Source: a virus. From it: a stretch of 64,000 nucleotides of DNA. The translations under genes and the position numbers were made by a program. Below, piece after piece: positions 31,681 through 49,165 of this stretch (positions are counted from its first letter, which is position 1; each line of letters starts with the position of its first letter). The notes under the pieces are model-generated. The model saw only the letters and a list, made by a program, of their open reading frames with translations, was not told where the DNA came from and searched no databases. The stretch lies in the IMG/VR virus record IMGVR_UViG_3300045942_000110; one strand, 5' to 3'.

Positions 31681-31686
31681 GAACAC

Positions 31687-31710
31687 GCCTCCGGCCAGTA
31701 GGCTGGAGGT
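31687..31710 (+). terminator. stem-loop after SWIM gene
   Basis: 10-bp stem gcctccggcc / ggctggaggt (two G-U pairs) with loop agta. Confidence 0.55.
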
Positions 31711-31891
31711 ACAAATCGTGGGCGTCCCGATGTCGCCCGCGCGCAAACGCGGCAGAGCCAATACCTTCGTCGGATGAGGCTCGACGGGTCCTAGGATCCA
31801 CCGGTGGATTGGTCTCCACAGAACGACAAGTGCGACGCGTGAGCTGAGGTTTTGGCCTCACACCTGGTCCCGGGTGGCGAAAAGGGCGCGA

Positions 31892-32015
31892 TCCGAAGTA
31901 GCTCAGTGGCAGAGCAGCGGCAGGGCCCGCCGGACAAGGACTATGGCAGAGCGTACGACGCGGCTTATGTTCCCGGTGCGACCGCAGGTCAGAGGTTCAA
32001 ATCCTCTCTTCGGAA
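31892..32015 (+). tRNA. tRNA-like element, non-canonical (59 nt in place of the 7-nt anticodon loop)
   Basis: Acceptor stem tccgaag / cttcgga. D arm gctc-agtggca-gagc. T arm agagg-ttcaaat-cctct. Stem gcgg / ccgc in the anticodon-stem position, followed by a 5-nt variable loop aggtc. Internal duplicate of tggcagagc. Confidence 0.45.
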
Positions 32016-32170
32016 CAGGCGTCACGAAGTAACGGATACGGCCAAGGCACCCTGCCGCCAGCGGCCCAAGACCGACTACTCACGACCCTTGGTGGCGACC
32101 TATATACGCACAGCAGACCCGGCAAGGTCATCCCGTTTAAGGGCTGAACCTACCGGGTCTTGCTGTTTCC

Positions 32171-32220
32171 AGCCCCGGCTTGGACTACATCATCAAATGT
32201 GGTTCAGGCCGGGGCTTTTT
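32171..32220 (+). terminator. intrinsic terminator (GC stem plus T5)
   Basis: agccccggc / gccggggct extendable to about 16 bp, followed by ttttt. It ends the untranslated 31.7-32.2 kb locus. Confidence 0.8.
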
Positions 32221-32258
32221 CGTGCCCAAGTCGGGGTACGACGGCCGGAGCGTTAGGC

Positions 32259-32283
32259 AGCGTAGTACGGGGCGTAGTACGCT
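32259..32283 (+). promoter_or_regulatory. class-2 element: duplicated GCGTAGTACG, second copy ending in TACGCT
   Basis: agcgtagtacgg ggcgtagtacgct. TACGCT is at 32278-32283, then 6 nt, then GTG 32290, with no SD. Confidence 0.55.
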
Positions 32284-32289
32284 CCCTCC

Positions 32290-32565
32290 GTGGCCGATCC
32301 TCTCAGCACCCCCGGGCTTCCCTGCCCCGAGTGTCGAGAGCGCCTACGCAGCGACGGCCAAGAGGTCACTGGCATGAACCGGATCGGCAACCGCCGCGGG
32401 ATCTGCATGACGTGCAACGCGTTCGTACAGGCTGTGAAGCGGCATGCGGCTTCGCGCCTGAAGGAGCTGCACGCCGAGGACTACGAGCGCATGCGCCTGG
32501 CCGTCGAGATGGACCTGTACCCGGGTGTCATCGAGAAGTGGAACCTCGAGAAGGGCCTGCGATGA
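32290..32565 (+). CDS. small zinc-ribbon-like protein
   Basis: Contains CPECRERL...CMTCNAF. Predicted leaderless GTG start. Confidence 0.55.
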   Translation: MADPLSTPGLPCPECRERLRSDGQEVTGMNRIGNRRGICMTCNAFVQAVKRHAASRLKELHAEDYERMRLAVEMDLYPGVIEKWNLEKGLR

Positions 32566-35937: not shown

Positions 35938-36938
35938 TGCCGAAGAGGATCGAGGTGCTGACCGCGCCTCCCGCGTTCACGCCCACGCTGCACCAGGAGG
36001 AGCTGGAGTGGTTCATGGCCAACGCTCCGACGTGGGGCTGGCACTGGGCCAAGACGTTCGCGAAGGGCGCCCATCACTCGTACGTGATGAAGGGCAAGCA
36101 CCTCGACGCAGAGACTTACGAGCGCGCGGTGCGCGTGGTCATGGCGCTGGGACAGCCGGCGAACTTCCACCGGCGGGTGAACCTCGAGCTGCACCTGCAC
36201 AACCTGGAGATGCCGTACGGCGCTCCGGGCGAGGAGCAGGTGTTGCGGGGCTTCAAGTTCTGGCCGATGACGAACGAGATGTCGATCAGCCAGGCGTTCA
36301 ACGTGGCGCCGGTGCACCTGTCGTACGGTGCGCAGACGGCGGTGGCGTCCAGAGACGAGCTCACGCGCCCGGACCAGTGGGACTTCCCGGCGGCCGACCT
36401 CGACTGGTACCTCAACAACCCCGAGGTCCGGACGCTCGAGCGGTGGAAGGGCGCGCTGCACAAGGCCCTCGGGATCCCCTCGGGGAACTTCGTCAACAGC
36501 GCGATCGAGCTGGGCCCGTCGACGGGCTTCGCCAAGGACCTGGGCCTGATCGCCGACAACGCGGAGTACCGTCTCGTACAGGGCAGCCAGGGCCTGATGA
36601 ACCAGGCGATCTTCAAGCACGACGTGCGCGACATCCGCCCGATGGACGTCAACGAGTACCTCGACCCGTGGCACTGGGAGGCCGGCGACACGGCGAACAC
36701 GGTACTCGCGCTCTTCGGCGCCGCGTCATACTTGAGCCCAGGGGCTGTGGAGCAGGCGTTCGTTCGAGCGCGCAGCCGTCTGGTGCTCATGCACCACCTG
36801 CCCGATACGGGGACGCAGCGCGACTTCGGAGTGCGTCTGCACCCGGAGCACCGCGAGTCGCTGCAGACGGCTGAGAACCTGCCGGGCGCGCGCACGGTGC
36901 GAGCCCAGGGATACGCGATCACGGTGGTGAGGAAGTAA
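35937..36938 (+). CDS. hypothetical protein, possible SAM-methyltransferase-like C-terminal half
   Basis: TGATG coupling at both ends. AIELGPSTGF loosely resembles methyltransferase motif I. The function is weakly supported. Confidence 0.5.
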   Translation: MPKRIEVLTAPPAFTPTLHQEELEWFMANAPTWGWHWAKTFAKGAHHSYVMKGKHLDAETYERAVRVVMALGQPANFHRRVNLELHLHNLEMPYGAPGEEQVLRGFKFWPMTNEMSISQAFNVAPVHLSYGAQTAVASRDELTRPDQWDFPAADLDWYLNNPEVRTLERWKGALHKALGIPSGNFVNSAIELGPSTGFAKDLGLIADNAEYRLVQGSQGLMNQAIFKHDVRDIRPMDVNEYLDPWHWEAGDTANTVLALFGAASYLSPGAVEQAFVRARSRLVLMHHLPDTGTQRDFGVRLHPEHRESLQTAENLPGARTVRAQGYAITVVRK

Positions 36939-38311
36939 TGGCTCTGACGGTCGAAGAGAAGGAGCAGCGCGCCGCAGAGCGGCAGCGTCTGCGGGACGAG
37001 CGGGCGGCCACCCTCGCGAAGGAGAAGGCGGACGCCAAGGCGGAGCGCGACCAGGAGCGGGCGGCACGCAAGGCGACCGAGGAGGCCGAGAAGGCCGAGC
37101 GCGCACGTCTGCGCCAGGAGGCGCGCGACGCGCCGTTCATCAACCGTGCGCTGGTCGAGATCGACATGCCCGTCTATGACGCGGCGCTTGAGCGGATCCG
37201 CTGGCTCTGGAAGGAGTTCGACGGCAACCTCTCGGTGAGCATCTCCGGCGGCAAGGACTCCACGGTGATCATGGAGCTGGCTGCGATCGTCGCGCGCGAG
37301 AACGGCGCTCGGCTGAAGGTGCAGTTCCTCGACCAGGAGGCGGAGTGGCAGGCCACGCGTGACTACCTGCGAGAGCTGAAGGACACGCGCGAGGACATCG
37401 ACTTCGACTGGTACCAGGTGCCCTTCAAGCTGTTCAACGCGTCGAGCCACGGCGCCGAGGGCGAGTGGGGTTACATGTGGCCGGAGATCGAGCCCGAGAG
37501 CGGCTACATGCGGCCACCCGAGCACGACTCGATCCGCGTCAACGACTTCGGGGTGGACCGCTTCACCGAGGTGCTGCATGAGATGAACCGCCGCGCCGGC
37601 GGCGTGCACCTGTCCGGAATGCGCGCCGAGGAGGCGCCCACCCGCCGTCTGGGTATGACGTCGAAGCCTGCGTACAAGTGGGCGACGTGGGGCGCTGGGG
37701 ACCCCTCGGGGACGCCGAACACGCCGGGCCAGTTCTGGTTCATGCACCCGATCTACGACTGGTCGTTCCGCGACATCTGGAAGGCGATCGAGGCCAACGG
37801 GTGGAAGTACAACCGTCTCTACGACGAGATGTACCGCTACGGCGTGAACCACCGTGAGATGCGCGTGAGCAGCCTCATCCACTCGGGCGCCGTGCGCCAC
37901 ATCGAGCAGATTCAGGAGATCGAGCCCGCGACGTGGGAGCGCCTGGTGGGCCGGTACGGCGGCGTGAACGCTGCAGCGCACGTCGGCGAGGACTCTCTCG
38001 AGGAGTTCCGCCGGAAGCGGCCGTGGATGTTCGACAGCTGGCTGGAGTACGCCGAGTACCTGATCGACAACCTCATCGAGCCGGAGCACCGGCCGAAGTT
38101 CCGCAAGCTGATCGCCACGTACAAGGCCCAGTGCCCGTGGATGCACATCGACCGGGTGGCGCAGAAGATGCTGCCGCTGATCATGAAGAACGACTACTTC
38201 AGCGACTACTCCTTCGGGAAGATGCTGAACACGAGCAAGACCTGGGCGGACCAGTACCAGGAGAAGAACGGGCCGCTGCCCGTCGACTGGGCCAAGCCCG
38301 TCGAGGACTGA
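36938..38311 (+). CDS. PAPS-reductase / PP-loop ATP-pyrophosphatase family protein (IbrA-like)
   Basis: PP-loop SISGGKDST. About 60 aa of K/E/R/A-rich N-terminal extension. Followed by ParB-fold genes. Confidence 0.75.
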   Translation: MALTVEEKEQRAAERQRLRDERAATLAKEKADAKAERDQERAARKATEEAEKAERARLRQEARDAPFINRALVEIDMPVYDAALERIRWLWKEFDGNLSVSISGGKDSTVIMELAAIVARENGARLKVQFLDQEAEWQATRDYLRELKDTREDIDFDWYQVPFKLFNASSHGAEGEWGYMWPEIEPESGYMRPPEHDSIRVNDFGVDRFTEVLHEMNRRAGGVHLSGMRAEEAPTRRLGMTSKPAYKWATWGAGDPSGTPNTPGQFWFMHPIYDWSFRDIWKAIEANGWKYNRLYDEMYRYGVNHREMRVSSLIHSGAVRHIEQIQEIEPATWERLVGRYGGVNAAAHVGEDSLEEFRRKRPWMFDSWLEYAEYLIDNLIEPEHRPKFRKLIATYKAQCPWMHIDRVAQKMLPLIMKNDYFSDYSFGKMLNTSKTWADQYQEKNGPLPVDWAKPVED

Positions 38312-38324
38312 GGGGAAGCAGAGC

Positions 38325-39071
38325 ATGACAGAGAAGGCGATCGGCACGGCCGTCGTGGAGGGGCGCACCACGCGCGTCCAGATCCCTCCGGTGGACCCGG
38401 AGAAGCAGGCGGTGGTCGACCAGATCAACGAGACGAACCGGCTGAACTACGAGCGCCTCGTCGAGGCGGGCGTGCTCGCGGACGACATGCCGGTGGCGCG
38501 CGTGCAGCTGCTGCACATCAGCCGTGTCCAGGCGAACGACTACAACCCCAACGCGGTGGCGGCCGACGAGATGCGCCTGCTGCACACCTCGATCAGCGAG
38601 GACGGCTACACGATGCCGATCGTCGCGATCTGGGACGCGGAGGCCGACGGCGGCCAGGGCAAGGCGATCATCGTGGACGGGTTCCACCGCTACACAACGA
38701 TGCGGATGTTCCAGGACATTGCGGACCGCAACAGCGGGTACCTGCCCGTCTCGCTGATCAAGAAGGACGTCAGCGACCGCATCGCCTCGACCGTGCGCCA
38801 CAACCGCGCGCGCGGGAAGCACTCCGTCGCCGGCATGGGCACGCTGGTGTTCCAGATGCTCGAGCAGGGCGAGGACGACCTCACCATCTGCAACAAGCTG
38901 GGAGTCGACGTCGAGGAGCTGGCGCGTCTGAAGCACGTGACCGGATACTCGAAGCTGTACGGTCCCGACAAGGCGCCGGCGTACTCGAACGTCGTGCTGA
39001 CCGGCAGCCAGATGCAGGCCAAGGCCGACTACAAGAAGGAGCACCCCGATGAGTCCGTCCCCCGCTACTGA
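38325..39071 (+). CDS. ParB/sulfiredoxin-fold protein (IbrB-like)
   Basis: VQANDYNPN, IIVDGFHRY, VRHNRARGKH. Confidence 0.7.
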   Translation: MTEKAIGTAVVEGRTTRVQIPPVDPEKQAVVDQINETNRLNYERLVEAGVLADDMPVARVQLLHISRVQANDYNPNAVAADEMRLLHTSISEDGYTMPIVAIWDAEADGGQGKAIIVDGFHRYTTMRMFQDIADRNSGYLPVSLIKKDVSDRIASTVRHNRARGKHSVAGMGTLVFQMLEQGEDDLTICNKLGVDVEELARLKHVTGYSKLYGPDKAPAYSNVVLTGSQMQAKADYKKEHPDESVPRY

Positions 39072-39633
39072 GGGCATGGAGCTGCGCGAGGTCGCGGTCT
39101 CCGATCTGATCCCGTACTGGCGCAACCCGCGTCGCATCAGCGACGAGGCCGTCGAGGCGATCATGCAGTCGATCGAGGAGTACGGCTACCAGCAGCCGAT
39201 CGTCGTGGACAGCGAGATGGTCATCGTGATGGGTCATACCCGCCACGCGGCGATCCGCCGGATGGGCTACCAGCGCGTCAACGTGCTCGTGGCCTCGGGG
39301 CTGTCGGCGAAGCAGATCAAGGAGCTGCGCACGATCGACAACCGCACCTCGGAGTTCACGCGGTGGGACTTCGACAAGCTCATGGACGAGCTCGGCACAG
39401 TGGACCAGAACCTCATGGCCTCGTTCTTCCCCGAGATCATCGACCCGGTGAAGGCTGAGGTGGTCGACGAGGACGGCAACATCGAGCAGCTGACGATCGA
39501 GGTCACCGCGAAGAAGGAGGACCCGGAGGCGGAGTTCATCTGCCCCGAGTGCTTCCACGGCTGGAAGATGCAGATCAGCAAGGAGGACGTGCTCTCGGGC
39601 CACCTCTACGTCAAGAAGGAGACCCAGGCGTGA
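39049..39633 (+). CDS. ParB N-terminal domain protein, paralogue 1
   Basis: aaggag SD 7 nt upstream. LIPYWRNPRRI, QQPIVVD...VIVMGHTRH. C-terminal CPECFHG. Confidence 0.7.
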   Translation: MSPSPATEGMELREVAVSDLIPYWRNPRRISDEAVEAIMQSIEEYGYQQPIVVDSEMVIVMGHTRHAAIRRMGYQRVNVLVASGLSAKQIKELRTIDNRTSEFTRWDFDKLMDELGTVDQNLMASFFPEIIDPVKAEVVDEDGNIEQLTIEVTAKKEDPEAEFICPECFHGWKMQISKEDVLSGHLYVKKETQA

Positions 39634-40265
39634 GCGACGCGACGAACACCGAGGCGCCGGCGCGCGACCTCGTTCCGGGATTGGTCGGCGAGCTGAAGTT
39701 TGTGCCGATCGAGACGCTGGTCCCGTACGAGAACAACCCGCGCTCGATCCCGCAGGACGCCATCGACGCGGTGGCGGAGAGCATCAAGCGCTACGGCTGG
39801 CAGCAGCCGATCGTGGTCGACGAGGAGATGGTGATCGTCGTTGGTCACACCCGGCGACAGGCCGCGCTGAGCCTCGGGCTCACCTCGGTGCCGATCCACG
39901 TCACGAAGCTGCCGGCGGAGAAGATCCGTGAGTACCGGTTGGTGGACAACCGCACGGGCGAGATGTCGAGCTGGGATCACGACTCGCTCGTCATGGAGCT
40001 GCGTGAGTTCGACAACGACCTGCTGCAGGTCTTCTTCCCGGAGATCGACCTCGAGTCGAATCTCATCGCCAACGCGACGGGACCCACCGAGCAGGAGATG
40101 AAGTGGGCCGAGGAGAAGGCCGGCAACGTCAAGGGCGCCTCGGATGCCAGCATGCACACGACCGACGTGACGTGCCCGTCGTGCGAGGGGCACTTCAAGG
40201 TGAAGACGCGCTCGCTGCCGGGCATGGACACCAAGACCATCGAGGACATGGCGGATGGCGACTGA
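39630..40265 (+). CDS. ParB N-terminal domain protein, paralogue 2
   Basis: GTGA coupling. LVPYENNPRSI, QQPIVVD...VIVVGHTRR. C-terminal CPSCEGH. Confidence 0.7.
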   Translation: MSDATNTEAPARDLVPGLVGELKFVPIETLVPYENNPRSIPQDAIDAVAESIKRYGWQQPIVVDEEMVIVVGHTRRQAALSLGLTSVPIHVTKLPAEKIREYRLVDNRTGEMSSWDHDSLVMELREFDNDLLQVFFPEIDLESNLIANATGPTEQEMKWAEEKAGNVKGASDASMHTTDVTCPSCEGHFKVKTRSLPGMDTKTIEDMADGD

Positions 40266-40806
40266 CAGCAACGCAGCACGCGACTCCGCCGAGGAGACGC
40301 TGAGAGGCCGCGGCAACGAGGTCCAGGTGCAGCAGCAGCGTCGAAGCGAGGCGGTGTCGCTGCGCCTGGCCGGCATGAGCTACGAGCAGATCGGTGAGCG
40401 TCTCGGCATCAGCGGCAACGCCGCGGAGCAGATGATCGGCCGAGCTCTGGACCGCAACGAGGTCCGCTCGGTCAGCCAGCTGCGCGCCGAGGAGAATGCT
40501 CGCCTGGACCGTGCGCAGATGGCTATCTGGGGCAAGGTCATCGAGGGCGACATCAAGGCGATCGGCACGTTCCTGCAGATCAGCGCGGCCCGCTCGAAGA
40601 TGAACGGGCTGTACGCTCCCACGCAGGTGCAGGTGTCGATGACCATCCGTCAGGAGATGGAGGAGGCCCTGCAGTCCCTCGAGACGCTGGTGCTCGGCGA
40701 GAGCCAGTACGCACAGAGCGACCCGGTAGGCCCCAACGGCCCGATGCGCCTGGAGGAAGCACGCGATGTCACAGACGCTGGTCACTCAGCCCCGCCTGTC
40801 CCCTGA
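40255..40806 (+). CDS. terS: terminase small subunit-like HTH protein
   Basis: Sigma-70 region-4-like HTH LRLAGMSYEQIGERLGISGNAAEQMIGRAL, then a helical oligomerisation-like region. Lies directly upstream of and overlapping terL. Confidence 0.55.
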   Translation: MATDSNAARDSAEETLRGRGNEVQVQQQRRSEAVSLRLAGMSYEQIGERLGISGNAAEQMIGRALDRNEVRSVSQLRAEENARLDRAQMAIWGKVIEGDIKAIGTFLQISAARSKMNGLYAPTQVQVSMTIRQEMEEALQSLETLVLGESQYAQSDPVGPNGPMRLEEARDVTDAGHSAPPVP

Positions 40807-42484
40807 GGAGTTCAAGAAGCGCCTCGCTGAACTCAAACGCCTGGCGGCCAACGCGGCATCCGAGTCGGAGGGTCGAGAGATCCTCAGCCGTATCGCGCAG
40901 GTCAGCCGCGCGTTCCGTGTGCAGAACGGCATCGGCCTGCCGCTGAACCCCGCGCTGCAGGCGCAGGAGATCGACCCGGGCTTCCGCATTCGCCCGCACA
41001 TCGACTACCTCTCGAACAAGATCGCCGAGGCGGTTCGGGACGTGGAGAACGGCAAGAGCCGACGCCTGATCGTGTCGATGCCACCTCGAGCCGGCAAGAG
41101 CACATTGACGAGCCTCTGGACGCCGCTGTGGATTCTCCGACGGCATCCCGAGTGGAAGTTCATGATGGCGTCCTACGACGGGGCGCTGACGACGAACTGG
41201 GCACGCCAGCAGCGCACGATGATCGAGGACCGGCCCGACCTCGGTGTGGCGCTGATGCGAGACGGCGGTGCCGGCGGTAAGTGGGCCACGGTGGAGAAGG
41301 GCGGCATGTTCGCCACCGGTGTGGGTGGCGCGATGACCGGTCGCGGTGCGAAGGTGATGCTGATCGACGACCCGATCGCCGACTTCGTGAGCGCCCACTC
41401 GCTGCGCATCCGCGACAACCTCTGGAACTGGTGGCTGTCGGTGGCGCAGACACGCCTCGAGCCGCCGTCCCTGGTGATCGTGGTCATGACGCGGTGGCAC
41501 GAGGACGACTTCGTCGGCCGGCTGCTGAGCAAGGAGTACGAGGGCGACCCCTCGGAGTGGGAGGAGATCGTGCTGCCGGCGATCGCCGACCGTGAGAACG
41601 ACCCGCTGGGCCGGGAGATCGGTGAGCCGCTGTACAGCCCGCTCCCGAGCCTGGACTACGAGCTGAACGACCCGGAGGCCGCGGTGCGGCGCTGGGACAA
41701 GGTCAAGGTCGACGTGGGCTCGTACACGTTCGCGTCGATGTACCAGCAGCGGCCGGCGCCCCAGAAGGGTGCCATCTTCGACGCGGGCTGGTGGCGGTTC
41801 TGGACGACGAATCCGAACCGTGCGACCGAGGACGGCCGCGTTATGTTCCTCGACCCGGGCGGTCTGGTCGGTGCGCAGTGGCTGGACAGCTGGGACACGG
41901 CGTTCAAGGCGTCCGAGGACTCCTCGTGGGTGGTGGCGCAGCGCTGGGCGAAGCAGGGACCGAACCGATACCTCATCACGCAGAAGCGCGGGCGCTGGTC
42001 GTTCACGAAGACGCTGCAGGAGTTCAAGAAGTGGGCGGTCAAGGACAACCACGGCGAGAGCCCGTTCGGGAAGTTCGTGCATAAGTCGCTGATGGAGGAG
42101 AAGGCCAACGGTGCCGCCATCATCGACACGGTGAAGGAGGAGATCAGCGGGATCAAGGCGATCAACCCGCGCACCTCGAAGGAGGCGCGTGCGCGCGCGA
42201 TCACGCCCGAGGTGGAGTCCGGTCACGTCTACCTGCCGCACCCGCTGGACCCCGGCAACGAGTGGGTCACCGACCTACTCAGCGAGCTGCGCAACTTCCC
42301 TCACGACACCAATGACGACCAGGTCGACGGTCTGACCCAGGCCCTCGAAGAGTTCCGCGAAGGCGGGGGCGGCGGTATCAGCGTGCCCGGCCGGCGCCCA
42401 GCGCCTGGCATCCAGGGCCGGTCGATCCCTCGGAACATCACGGCGGCCGCTGCGACGATGGGTCGGCGCATCCCTGGCAGGTAG
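40766..42484 (+). CDS. terL: terminase large subunit
   Basis: Walker A PPRAGKST and Walker B-like MLIDDP. C-terminal RNaseH-like nuclease region (DSWDTAFK..., NDDQVD). Confidence 0.85.
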   Translation: MSQTLVTQPRLSPEEFKKRLAELKRLAANAASESEGREILSRIAQVSRAFRVQNGIGLPLNPALQAQEIDPGFRIRPHIDYLSNKIAEAVRDVENGKSRRLIVSMPPRAGKSTLTSLWTPLWILRRHPEWKFMMASYDGALTTNWARQQRTMIEDRPDLGVALMRDGGAGGKWATVEKGGMFATGVGGAMTGRGAKVMLIDDPIADFVSAHSLRIRDNLWNWWLSVAQTRLEPPSLVIVVMTRWHEDDFVGRLLSKEYEGDPSEWEEIVLPAIADRENDPLGREIGEPLYSPLPSLDYELNDPEAAVRRWDKVKVDVGSYTFASMYQQRPAPQKGAIFDAGWWRFWTTNPNRATEDGRVMFLDPGGLVGAQWLDSWDTAFKASEDSSWVVAQRWAKQGPNRYLITQKRGRWSFTKTLQEFKKWAVKDNHGESPFGKFVHKSLMEEKANGAAIIDTVKEEISGIKAINPRTSKEARARAITPEVESGHVYLPHPLDPGNEWVTDLLSELRNFPHDTNDDQVDGLTQALEEFREGGGGGISVPGRRPAPGIQGRSIPRNITAAAATMGRRIPGR

Positions 42485-48318: not shown

Positions 48319-48575
48319 TCATGAGCGACGGCAAGTTCACTGTTTCCGACGGACTCCGTTTCCTCGACGGGCTGCGCACTTTCGCGGCAGCCCACGGGAC
48401 GGCTGAGGTCGACGAAGAGCCTGATTACGGCACACCGGGCAAGGGCGACTGGGTCTACCGCCTGCACGTTCCGCCGCAGCACACCGACGCGGTCCTGCAC
48501 GCGCTCATGGCCATCGACTACGACCTCATCGACGAGAACCGCCTCGTCATCCTCAAGGAAGGAGCGGAATCCTGA
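48315..48575 (+). CDS. hypothetical protein
   Basis: GTGA coupling (alternative ATG 48321). Confidence 0.55.
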   Translation: MIMSDGKFTVSDGLRFLDGLRTFAAAHGTAEVDEEPDYGTPGKGDWVYRLHVPPQHTDAVLHALMAIDYDLIDENRLVILKEGAES

Positions 48576-49165
48576 TGTTCGAGCAGATCACCGACCGCAC
48601 GCCCGCCCACATCGGTCTCGACCTGGAGACCACGGGCCTGAACGCCAAGCTGGATCGCATCCTCGAGGTGTCGTTCCAGCTGCTCGATGAGGACTTCGAG
48701 ATCATCCCCACTTCGGGCGCGCACACCTTCGTGGTGCGGATGACCTCGACGCACCGTGCGAAGCTCGTTGACAGCCCGGTGGCGCTCAACATGCACCAGG
48801 GCAACGGGCTCTTCCTCGACGCGCTCCATGCGCCCAAGAGCCACACGATCAAGAAGATCGACGAGCGCATCGACGTCTCCCTCCGCAACATGTACGTCCA
48901 CTTCGGAGGCTTCGAGAAGGTCGGCCGGCTGCCGCTGTTCGGCTCGTCGGTGCACTTCGATCAGGCGTTCGTGAACAACCACATGCCGATGCTCGCGAAG
49001 CTCATCCACTACCGCGTGAGCGACGTCACCTCGATGAAGGCACTGATGGTCCGCAAGGGCTGGGTCGAGCAGGAGGGCCGGCAGATCGCGCACCGCGCGG
49101 CCGACGACCTGCAGTGGTCGATCGACATCGCCCAGGAGCTGCGGGACTTCGAGGCGTCACGGTGA
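48575..49165 (+). CDS. orn: oligoribonuclease (DEDDh 3'-5' exonuclease, Orn-like)
   Basis: Collinear with E. coli Orn as I recall its sequence: GLDLETTGL..DRILEV, LFGSSVHFDQAFV..MP.L....HYRVSDVTSMK, HRAADDL. Confidence 0.85.
   Translation: MFEQITDRTPAHIGLDLETTGLNAKLDRILEVSFQLLDEDFEIIPTSGAHTFVVRMTSTHRAKLVDSPVALNMHQGNGLFLDALHAPKSHTIKKIDERIDVSLRNMYVHFGGFEKVGRLPLFGSSVHFDQAFVNNHMPMLAKLIHYRVSDVTSMKALMVRKGWVEQEGRQIAHRAADDLQWSIDIAQELRDFEASR

Follow-up and report, generated by a model that had tools for sequence, protein, structure and literature searches.

The 64,000-nucleotide stretch of viral DNA analyzed here, IMG/VR virus record IMGVR_UViG_3300045942_000110 (the window), carries at positions 31892-32015 a 124-nt tRNA-like gene in which the anticodon loop is replaced by a long insert. 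Comparison of this gene with its counterparts in related phages leads us, on balance, to favor its assignment to a previously undescribed family of non-decoding phage tRNA-like RNAs, carried by Microbacterium phages of the Rogerhendrixvirus type. As six related phages share the unusual design, the gene probably encodes a working tRNA mimic rather than representing a broken gene. Six orthologs were found, in the Microbacterium phages Hendrix and Rasputia and in four metagenomic relatives (L039, L042, L047 and L049), and each genome contains one copy.

The window gene, which lies on the + strand, reads TCCGAAG TA GCTC AGTGGCA GAGC A GCGG C-(insert)-A CCGC AGGTC AGAGG TTCAAAT CCTCT CTTCGGA A. The 5' strand of the acceptor stem, UCCGAAG (31892-31898), pairs at all seven positions with CUUCGGA (32008-32014), which is followed by the discriminator base A73 (A32015; the 3' strand and discriminator together span 32008-32015). 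This adenine is found in all seven members, and in the window it ends the gene, with no CCA encoded. The D arm, GCUC AGUGGCA GAGC (31901-31915), contains A14, G15, G18, G19 and A21, and its stem is invariant in all seven members. The 5' strand of the anticodon stem, GCGG (31917-31920), pairs with CCGC (31982-31985), which runs into the variable loop AGGUC (31986-31990; strand and loop together, 31982-31990), and C48 of this loop is the Levitt partner of G15. The T arm, AGAGG UUCAAAU CCUCU (31991-32007), contains G53, T54, psi55, C56, A58 and C61. The anticodon stem comprises 4 bp, with a C-A mismatch at its fifth position, such that the insert between the stem strands is 61 nt long (31921-31981), or 59 nt with the mismatched pair assigned to the stem. 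A first-pass annotation, made by a model that saw only the letters and the open reading frames of the window, had described the acceptor stem, the D and T arms and the variable loop, a 59-nt insert in place of the anticodon loop, the absence of an encoded CCA and the absence of a canonical loop with U33 and a purine at position 37. The sequence bears out each of these descriptions, and the last extends to all orthologs.

Of the checks that the same annotation had proposed, an Rfam scan in permissive local mode matched the gene to the tRNA model (RF00005, model positions 1-71) with 52.3 bits (E 3.6e-10, gathering score 29) and placed a 61-nt insertion at the anticodon region. ARAGORN, run over the whole window, called neither a tRNA nor a transfer-messenger RNA (tmRNA), and a whole-window Rfam scan in default gathering mode also missed the gene. 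The cloverleaf and the tertiary residues, U8 and G15:C48 among them, are present and the score lies above gathering, as expected of a tRNA. Neither the window gene nor any ortholog contains the 5-bp stem and 7-nt loop with U33 and purine 37 that would mark a functional decoder. Folded without constraints, the 124-nt sequence shows no unusual stability (z = -1.5). The Rfam score and the orthologs rule out a chance or artefactual origin.

The window phage has a G+C content of ~65% and encodes a family A DNA polymerase, a primase-polymerase, an SNF2 helicase, a large terminase and a DNA ligase. Megablast against GenBank phages returned no close relative of the window, and it is distant BLAST matches together with a conserved Cys-rich protein (32290-32565) that link it to the genus Rogerhendrixvirus, whose Microbacterium phages Hendrix, Rasputia, Leaf and Dewdrop have genomes of 95-98 kb. 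Distant BLAST located the Hendrix ortholog in an unannotated 349-nt gap between tRNA-Trp and tRNA-Phe in the tRNA cluster, and the Rasputia ortholog occupies the same type of unannotated gap. The inserts are 96 nt long in Hendrix and 56 nt in Rasputia, with a family range of 24-96 nt. In the publication on Hendrix, only four tRNAs are listed, along with an RtcB-like ligase, and a fifth gene goes unmentioned (PMC7302621); the literature searched contained no account of such an element. Four further members were obtained by fetching the DNA around database homologs of the downstream Cys-rich protein, which served as an anchor: L039 2020-2142 (123 nt), L042 2028-2114 (87 nt), L047 1973-2078 (106 nt) and L049 437-566 (130 nt).

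A covariance model, R1, was built from five members, including the window, with L047 and L049 outside the seed. The seven members score 85-100 bits with R1, and every canonical tRNA in the 26 loci scores at most 55 bits. The window gene scores 89.2 bits, by construction as it is a seed member, and shows the features of the family. ARAGORN called only one of the seven, L042, as "tRNA-??? (gatc)". The gene was not found in Leaf, L031-L034, L040, L041, L043-L046, L048, L050 or L051, and no DNA search using the gene produced a match in Dewdrop. Wider pattern scans of IMG/VR and GTDB genomes and BLAST of GenBank phages revealed no further members.

The pattern scan did reveal tRNA-model matches of 98-130 nt with inserts of 36-60 nt in the anticodon or variable region on three unrelated IMG/VR phage contigs, one of which is from a 532-kb phage (L001 5540-5651; L002 3372-3473, 4974-5071 and 12516-12645; L003 5058-5166). 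These have no readable anticodon and lack the boundary motif of the R1 family. The idea of a general class for tRNAs with a long insert at the anticodon was considered and set aside, as the L001-L003 genes are heterogeneous and share no common boundary motif; three unrelated insert-bearing genes from other phage contigs gave ordinary R1 scores, 44-53 bits. They are kept apart from the family here, but insert-bearing tRNA-like genes in phages may be commoner than annotation suggests.

The pattern of change in the tRNA body points to purifying selection accompanied by compensatory substitutions. In the seven-sequence alignment (A7), in which the unalignable distal parts of the inserts were replaced by the GAAA cap natural to L042, 98.9% of the 175 pair cells are standard pairs and the sole departure from pairing is at position 39, in two members. 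Changes on both sides are observed in 13 of the 25 pairs, distributed over the acceptor stem (6/7), the T stem (3/5), the anticodon stem (2/4, with 100% pairing across the family) and the first helix of the insert (2/3). When the 3' partners were slid by 1-3 columns, pairing fell to 38-53%, and 0 of 500 column shuffles matched the observed pairing or covariation score, a figure that is indicative rather than a probability given seven related sequences. Thus, the covariation check in related phages, also proposed by the first-pass annotation, uncovered compensatory change and not free drift of the acceptor and T pairings. In addition, U8, A14, G15:C48, G18G19, A21, G53, T54, psi55, C56, A58 and C61 are kept, in five members as scored by script and in all seven as read from the alignment. 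Because these tertiary-contact residues are retained, the RNA should adopt the L-shape.

The tRNA-like halves of the Hendrix and Rasputia genes share ~93% identity, while the adjacent spacers are near random and the insert interior is unalignable. Each member also has the features specific to the family, namely the anticodon stem and bulge, a variable loop RGGUC, A26 (G in L042), a T loop UUCRARU and A73. These findings bear directly on whether the locus is a dead tRNA gene that was disrupted by an insertion and is now drifting. Such a gene would have no anticodon and an unconstrained insert interior, might escape ARAGORN as the window copy does, and could be absent from close relatives, all of which is observed. 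It would not, however, be expected to keep its helices paired across seven divergent copies while both partners change in 13 pairs, to retain all tertiary-contact residues, to show a body ~93% conserved beside randomized spacers or to share a conserved bulge and boundary that are specific to the family; nor are the copies recent transfers of one sequence, their stems and inserts being different. With flawless cloverleafs and many compensatory changes in seven orthologs, we consider decay, which the first-pass annotation had listed among its options, highly improbable.

The bodies may nevertheless have exchanged parts with neighboring tRNAs. The window gene shares its acceptor and T stems, base for base, with the canonical tRNA-Asn of L041, and the Hendrix-type body is similar to tRNA-Trp in its 5' half. 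Every gene is still intact and retains the family-specific features.

The insert that replaces the anticodon loop consists of a conserved core and a free tip. In the window gene, the core starts with the bulge C-A-GGGCCC-G (31921-31929), predicted to be mostly unpaired, in which the hexamer GGGCCC occupies 31923-31928, followed by the 5' strand of a first helix, CCGG (31930-31933), whose partner is located at 31973-31976. The distal variable part (31934-31972) comes next, and the 3' boundary (31973-31981) is composed of the helix strand CCGG, a UG bulge, CG and a single A. This layout is common to the seven members: a 4-bp anticodon stem leads into single-stranded C-A-GGNNCC, position 39 (G in five members, A in L042 and L047) and a covarying helix, and on the 3' side a bulge of 2-3 nt, an invariant CG and one base precede the closing strand of the stem. 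The helix itself takes the forms CCGG/CCGG, CUCC/GGAG, CCG/CGG, CCCGA/UCGGG, CCUCGUG/CACGAGG, CCC/GGG and CCUCC/GGAGG. The minimal member, L042, has an insert of 24 nt, reduced to the bulge, a 3-bp helix and a GAAA tetraloop (UCGG C A GGAUCC A CCC GAAA GGG CG CG U CCGA).

Beyond the helix, the distal part ranges from 0 nt in L042 to ~70 nt in Hendrix and is unalignable even between the closest members. Folding of the insert interior compared with dinucleotide shuffles gave z = +0.33 for the window, with further values of +0.16 and -1.04, and the idea of a selected stable hairpin was rejected. The first-pass annotation had seen in the insert a partial duplication of the 5' half of the D arm and anticodon stem; the repeat is real, with TGGCAGAGC present at 31907-31915 and again at 31944-31952, but this second UGGCAGAGC copy is limited to the fast-evolving distal part and is unique to the window phage. 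Its best candidate for an anticodon loop, CUUAUGU, is located in the same distal part, is kept in no ortholog and is thus a chance feature of the window. A search within the window for an antisense target of the insert found nothing longer than 10 nt. An alternative local pairing of the anticodon-stem 5' strand with the CCGC after the bulge, which would create a "giant variable arm" and is implied by the ARAGORN call of L042, is disfavored, as only 82% of cells pair, no pair is compensated and each substitution breaks a pair. Inspection of the junction for a bulge-helix-bulge, a kink-turn or a loop-E motif revealed no fit.

The core also contains the hexamer, at positions 33-38. It is GGAUCC in Hendrix, Rasputia and L042, GGGCCC in the window, L039 and L049, and GGUACC in L047, and so is self-complementary in all seven members, although the central pair is A-U in three, G-C in three and U-A in one. 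Only 5 of 500 shuffles equaled this pattern of self-complementarity. As GGGCCC accompanies either body type, that of the window and L039 as well as that of L049, the hexamer variant is not merely a clade marker. The hexamer is mostly unpaired in cloverleaf-constrained ensembles, and the predicted self-duplexes have energies of -8.2 to -12.5 kcal/mol. No second copy that could act as a partner in trans was found at the syntenic site, and L047 and L049 have a single copy in the DNA fetched. Because a six-base palindrome cannot fold on itself and no conserved second copy lies nearby, the simplest explanation is that the hexamers of two molecules pair with each other, which would probably create a kissing dimer.

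Across the whole window, GGGCCC is rare, with 21 occurrences against ~79 expected from base composition, and GGATCC (16 against 21.5) is near expectation; the scarcity of GGGCCC may reflect avoidance of a host restriction site. This under-representation could also be taken to mean that the palindrome acts as DNA, either as a site bound or cleaved by a dimeric protein or as a recombination hot spot. GGATCC, GGGCCC and GGTACC are classic sites of dimeric proteins, and the tRNA cluster is a recombination hot spot that contains chimeric genes. The symmetric change of the central pair is, however, what base pairing would produce, whereas a protein site would require the protein to coevolve, and the palindrome is found at a constant position of a covarying RNA structure. 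We therefore regard a role at the DNA level as very improbable and retain the RNA kissing dimer as the preferred explanation of the hexamer.

The conserved boundaries of an insert whose interior is free in length and sequence are also what an intron would show. On this explanation, which corresponds to the suggestion in the first-pass annotation of a tRNA that needs processing, a host or phage endonuclease would cut out the insert and the halves would be ligated into a decoding tRNA, with RtcB as one candidate ligase. Hendrix and Rasputia do encode RtcB. Leaf and Dewdrop, which lack the gene, are not among the listed RtcB search matches (at least 43% identity), and Leaf has no RtcB in its annotated syntenic interval. 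If all nucleotides separating G39 from position 40 were excised, which is the neatest option, five of the seven members would be left with a stem of 5 bp closing a loop of 7 nt. That loop, however, is AGGRYCC, with G33 and C37, and no scheme of removal provides U33 and a purine at position 37 in any member; moreover, L042 and L047 have A at position 39 and would still lack the fifth pair. Inspection of all orthologs for a bulge-helix-bulge at the insert boundaries (two 3-nt bulges around a 4-bp helix) found none. A permissive Rfam scan of the locus matched the tRNA model only, with no ribozyme or group I intron, and inserts of 24-96 nt do not accommodate a group I core (P3-P9, ~200 nt or more).

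Strict co-occurrence of RtcB with the gene fits Hendrix and Rasputia, where both are present, and Leaf and Dewdrop, where both are absent, but is broken by the window, which has the gene while no RtcB was found within its 64 kb, syntenic interval included. Scans of ~40 window open reading frames (ORFs) with Pfam and PHROGs for RNA-repair or splicing enzymes identified only an RNase T-like exonuclease, encoded at 48575-49165. The proximal part of the insert, furthermore, is conserved, and its first helix covaries as a functional structure would. Collectively, these data make an intron improbable. The 48575-49165 product, a DEDD exonuclease annotated as "oligoribonuclease" in Hendrix, is a possible tRNA 3'-end trimming activity.

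The acceptor stem provides a further indication of what the family might do. Six of the seven members contain G1:C72, G2:C71, G3:U70 and A73. Alanyl-tRNA synthetase, an enzyme that ignores the anticodon and charges tmRNA and minihelices, uses G3:U70 with A73 as its identity set. Because this anticodon-independent set is present, the six members are probably chargeable with alanine. The window copy differs, with U1:A72, C2:G71 and C3:G70 alongside A73, and so lacks the G3:U70 shared by alanine acceptors and tmRNA. Its acceptor stem is of the tRNA-Asn type, and the tRNA-Asn of these phages has G73. As the acceptor stem appears to have been swapped for this type, the window copy is probably not a substrate of alanyl-tRNA synthetase, and it probably escapes both the alanine and the asparagine enzymes. 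Thus, alanine charging may be relevant to the family but is not a property that can be ascribed to the window gene.

An alanine carrier dedicated to non-ribosomal transfer, such as to a cell-wall or other aminoacyl-tRNA-dependent transferase, and barred from translation by loss of the anticodon, would make sense of the G1-G2-G3:U70 and A73 in six members; alanyl-tRNA synthetase is established not to need the anticodon, and a modification operon (glycosyltransferases, methyltransferase, acetyltransferase) lies directly downstream. We hold this explanation to be improbable: the window copy has no G3:U70, neither scans of the window nor the annotation of Hendrix revealed an aminoacyl-tRNA-dependent transferase family, and the conserved palindromic bulge is left unexplained.

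The genomic setting places the gene in the tRNA hot spot of these phages. The tRNA-like gene is on the same strand as the phage tRNA cluster and lies within the cluster or, in the window, replaces it. Upstream, a leader spacer (31681-31891, + strand) is homologous to the spacer before the first cluster tRNA (Asn) in Hendrix, Rasputia and Leaf (alignment A5), with conserved blocks ACAAATCGT, GCGCGCA and CACCG..GGATTGGTCTCC.C.GAACGAC. Within a conserved leader block, the window has a perfect 14-nt palindrome, ATCCACCGGTGGAT, at 31796-31809, where the relatives have the non-palindromic CACCGAAGGATTGG. Right after the discriminator base, a conserved non-coding element begins on the + strand (32016 to about 32110-32160; alignment A4), at the end of which a terminator scan located an intrinsic terminator (32171-32216, + strand). 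This element adjoins the last tRNA or tRNA-like gene in 5/5 loci compared and has the motif CAGGCGTCACGAARTAACGG, a variable hairpin, then CAGACGAYTACTCACGACCC..GCGACC.ATA.ACGCA. Copies are located at L004 3248-3345, L029 2429-2530, L028 2426-2530, L034 20-130, L039 2243-2345 and L047 ~2290-2400, and no Rfam model matches it. The element looks like a small RNA that would be released by tRNA 3' processing, and the terminator is the probable 3' end of the same transcript as the tRNA-like gene. Since the gene lies between the cluster leader and the downstream element, the cluster of the window is reduced to the tRNA-like gene alone.

This arrangement raises the possibility that the gene serves as structural punctuation, its tRNA shape recruiting RNase P and 3' processing enzymes that free or define the 5' end of the downstream RNA. 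In all five loci, the downstream element begins directly behind the discriminator of the tRNA or tRNA-like gene that comes last, the window cluster has collapsed to a single tRNA-shaped gene between leader and element, and L032 and L033, which are devoid of tRNAs, have also lost the 5' half of the element. Any tRNA would do for this purpose, however, and in five members (Hendrix, Rasputia, L039, L047 and L049) the element is abutted by a canonical tRNA or the gene has one on its 3' side. Punctuation therefore cannot explain the conserved module in the anticodon arm. As the main function it is unlikely, though as a secondary role in the window it is plausible.

The hot spot is plastic, with relatives holding 0-7 tRNA-type genes. 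In Hendrix, an orphan T-arm copy, GCAGGTTCGAGTCCTGC, follows tRNA-Trp (L004 2825-2900) and matches the YrlA model weakly, at a subthreshold 25.6 bits; this copy looks like a remnant of recombination and illustrates the plasticity. At the same site, L040 (223-1887) and L041 (334-1986) carry a Ro60 gene (TROVE and vWA), followed by a conserved structured non-coding region of ~200-270 nt (L040 1925-2150; L041 2030-2260), a copy of which adjoins the tRNA-like gene in L049 (567-800). This region contains the motifs GCTGAAG.CATCTGAAGC, CCGTAGA and CACCTCC..CCAACCG, has no Rfam YrlA match and may be a new phage Y RNA. The relatives with Ro60 lack the tRNA-like gene, and tblastn with the L040 Ro60 protein gave no match in the window, Hendrix or Leaf.

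Further features were observed around these genes. A tandem direct repeat, AGCGTAGTACG(N4-8)GTAGTACGCTCCC, at 32258-32290, just before the start codon of the 91-aa Cys-rich protein, is invariant in all aligned relatives and is probably an operator or promoter of the downstream glycosyltransferase/methyltransferase operon. At 36938-38311, a protein with PAPS-reductase and DUF3440 domains is encoded, followed by three ORFs (38325-40265) at the position of the ParB-like gp1-gp3 of Hendrix. The first of the three, which was the only one scanned, has no Pfam match, and the terminase (40766-42484) is next. This 36938-40265 region spans the equivalent of the start of the Hendrix genome map, and its arrangement resembles IbrA/IbrB.

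Taken together, the data suggest how the RNA might act. The gene would be cotranscribed with the tRNA cluster, or in its place, and RNase P and the 3' tRNA-processing enzymes would cut out the RNA. CCA would then be added and the RNA would fold into the tRNA L-shape, with no codon readable. It would act through a combination of tRNA mimicry and the conserved bulge, occupying a tRNA-binding partner while presenting the hexamer, which would probably pair with the identical hexamer of a second molecule to form a kissing dimer. The accessory distribution of the gene, the tRNAs and Ro60 of the hot spot and the RtcB encoded elsewhere in two genomes together place its most likely role in the phage-host conflict over tRNAs. 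Description of the RNA as a tRNA mimic, another option in the first-pass annotation, is therefore supported as regards its nature. The same annotation had named a decoy for anticodon nucleases as an example, and a decoy that lacks the very loop recognized by these enzymes would be an odd one. In a more specific version, which we put forward tentatively and consider rather unlikely in its entirety, the anticodon-less, alanine-chargeable mimic would pair with itself through the palindrome to form a two-headed particle that traps or redirects a host tRNA-binding factor, such as a defense nuclease, a toxin that modifies acceptor ends or a synthetase, with the window copy as a variant that lost its alanine identity by recombination with tRNA-Asn.

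Several points weigh against the assignment to a functional family. There is no thermodynamic signal in the insert interior, and the alanine signature is missing from the very copy in the window. The gene is dispensable, as close relatives (Leaf, Dewdrop, L031-L033, L040 and L041) do without it, and the seven members come from a single narrow phage group. The covariation of the palindrome amounts to two substitution events at one pair. Some differences between stems may have arisen by recombination among clustered tRNA genes and not by compensation in place, and the covariation counts include changes inherited by several members. Among the alternatives, we rank punctuation first, followed by the intron, then the alanine donor, with the DNA-level palindrome and the pseudogene last.

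If the family does function as a tRNA mimic, it enters a field in which phage tRNA genes are now viewed as weapons against host enzymes that cut or modify tRNAs. To our knowledge, the worked-out cases of phage tRNAs in this conflict are all working decoder tRNAs. The family described here keeps all the features seen by tRNA-processing and tRNA-binding proteins and, instead of an anticodon loop, has a conserved, apparently self-pairing motif. Standard annotation overlooks such genes: ARAGORN skipped six of the seven, the default filters of Rfam miss the window copy and the GenBank records of Hendrix and Rasputia have gaps of ~350 nt. GenBank lists both phages, together with their host Microbacterium foliorum NRRL B-24224, as cultured isolates, which makes the family directly testable.

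Mycobacteriophage tRNAs, the T5 tRNA-Lys acting against PARIS and tRNA-Tyr acting against retrons exemplify phage tRNAs that escape or neutralize tRNA-targeting defenses (PMC10264068, PMC11464382, PMC11555353). Like these, the present RNAs are phage-encoded, accessory members of tRNA clusters with an anticodon region that is altered relative to host-type tRNAs. Unlike these, which are working decoders with point changes in a normal 7-nt loop, the present RNAs have no anticodon loop and so cannot replace a depleted tRNA. The intron-containing tRNAs of archaea and eukaryotes also have an insert in the anticodon arm of an otherwise canonical tRNA, as do the phage genes with their 24-96 nt, and two of the phages encode an RtcB-type ligase. 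In contrast to those tRNAs, the phage RNAs lack a bulge-helix-bulge and a canonical 37/38 position, and removal of the insert leaves no functional loop. In addition, we know of no splicing endonuclease in the bacterial host.

Two bacterial RNAs that borrow the tRNA fold provide closer comparisons. As in tmRNA, six of the seven members have G3:U70 and A73, all have a canonical T arm and end in the acceptor stem, the anticodon arm is replaced by a long helix that leads to another structure, and charging would need no anticodon. However, the phage RNAs retain a full D arm, contain no pseudoknots and are 87-160 nt long compared with ~350-400 nt for tmRNA, and the window copy lacks G3:U70. They also have no tag frame: a short frame is present in the Hendrix insert, but the Rasputia insert has no stop in any frame and the window insert has no internal stop, which, together with the absence of an ARAGORN tmRNA call, excludes a tmRNA-like tag. 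YrlA (RF02553) is likewise non-coding, with a tRNA-like module of D arm, T arm and tertiary residues whose "anticodon stem" runs into another helix, and a Ro60 gene is found in the same hot spot of relatives. The topology is permuted, in that the phage RNA ends in its acceptor stem and caps the extension, whereas YrlA ends in its Ro60-binding stem and caps the acceptor stem. The Ro60-binding motif of YrlA is GNCGAAN0-1G, and in the actinobacterium Mycobacterium smegmatis a tRNA-like Y RNA is cleaved by RNase P and receives CCA in vivo (PMC4201824). Topology, the lack of this motif, the lack of an Rfam YrlA match and the lack of an adjacent Ro60 gene rule out that the phage RNA is itself a Y RNA.

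For the bulge, the nearest parallels are kissing-loop sites. The dimerization initiation site (DIS) of HIV-1 is a self-complementary kissing loop, and loops pair between molecules in the phi29 pRNA. The phage hexamer resembles such sites in being a single-stranded six-base palindrome with a flanking purine whose variants stay self-complementary, and differs from them in its location in an internal bulge of a tRNA-like RNA and in that its dimer is a prediction. The overall design, finally, is that of the engineered "tRNA scaffold", in which, as reportedly described by Ponchon and Dardel in 2007, a foreign hairpin takes the place of the anticodon stem-loop and the chimera is processed and stabilized like a tRNA. 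The phage version is natural, and in it the junction bulge is the conserved part and the hairpin is variable. If expressed, the family would be a natural counterpart of this laboratory scaffold and a compact new tRNA mimic beside tmRNA and the Y RNAs.

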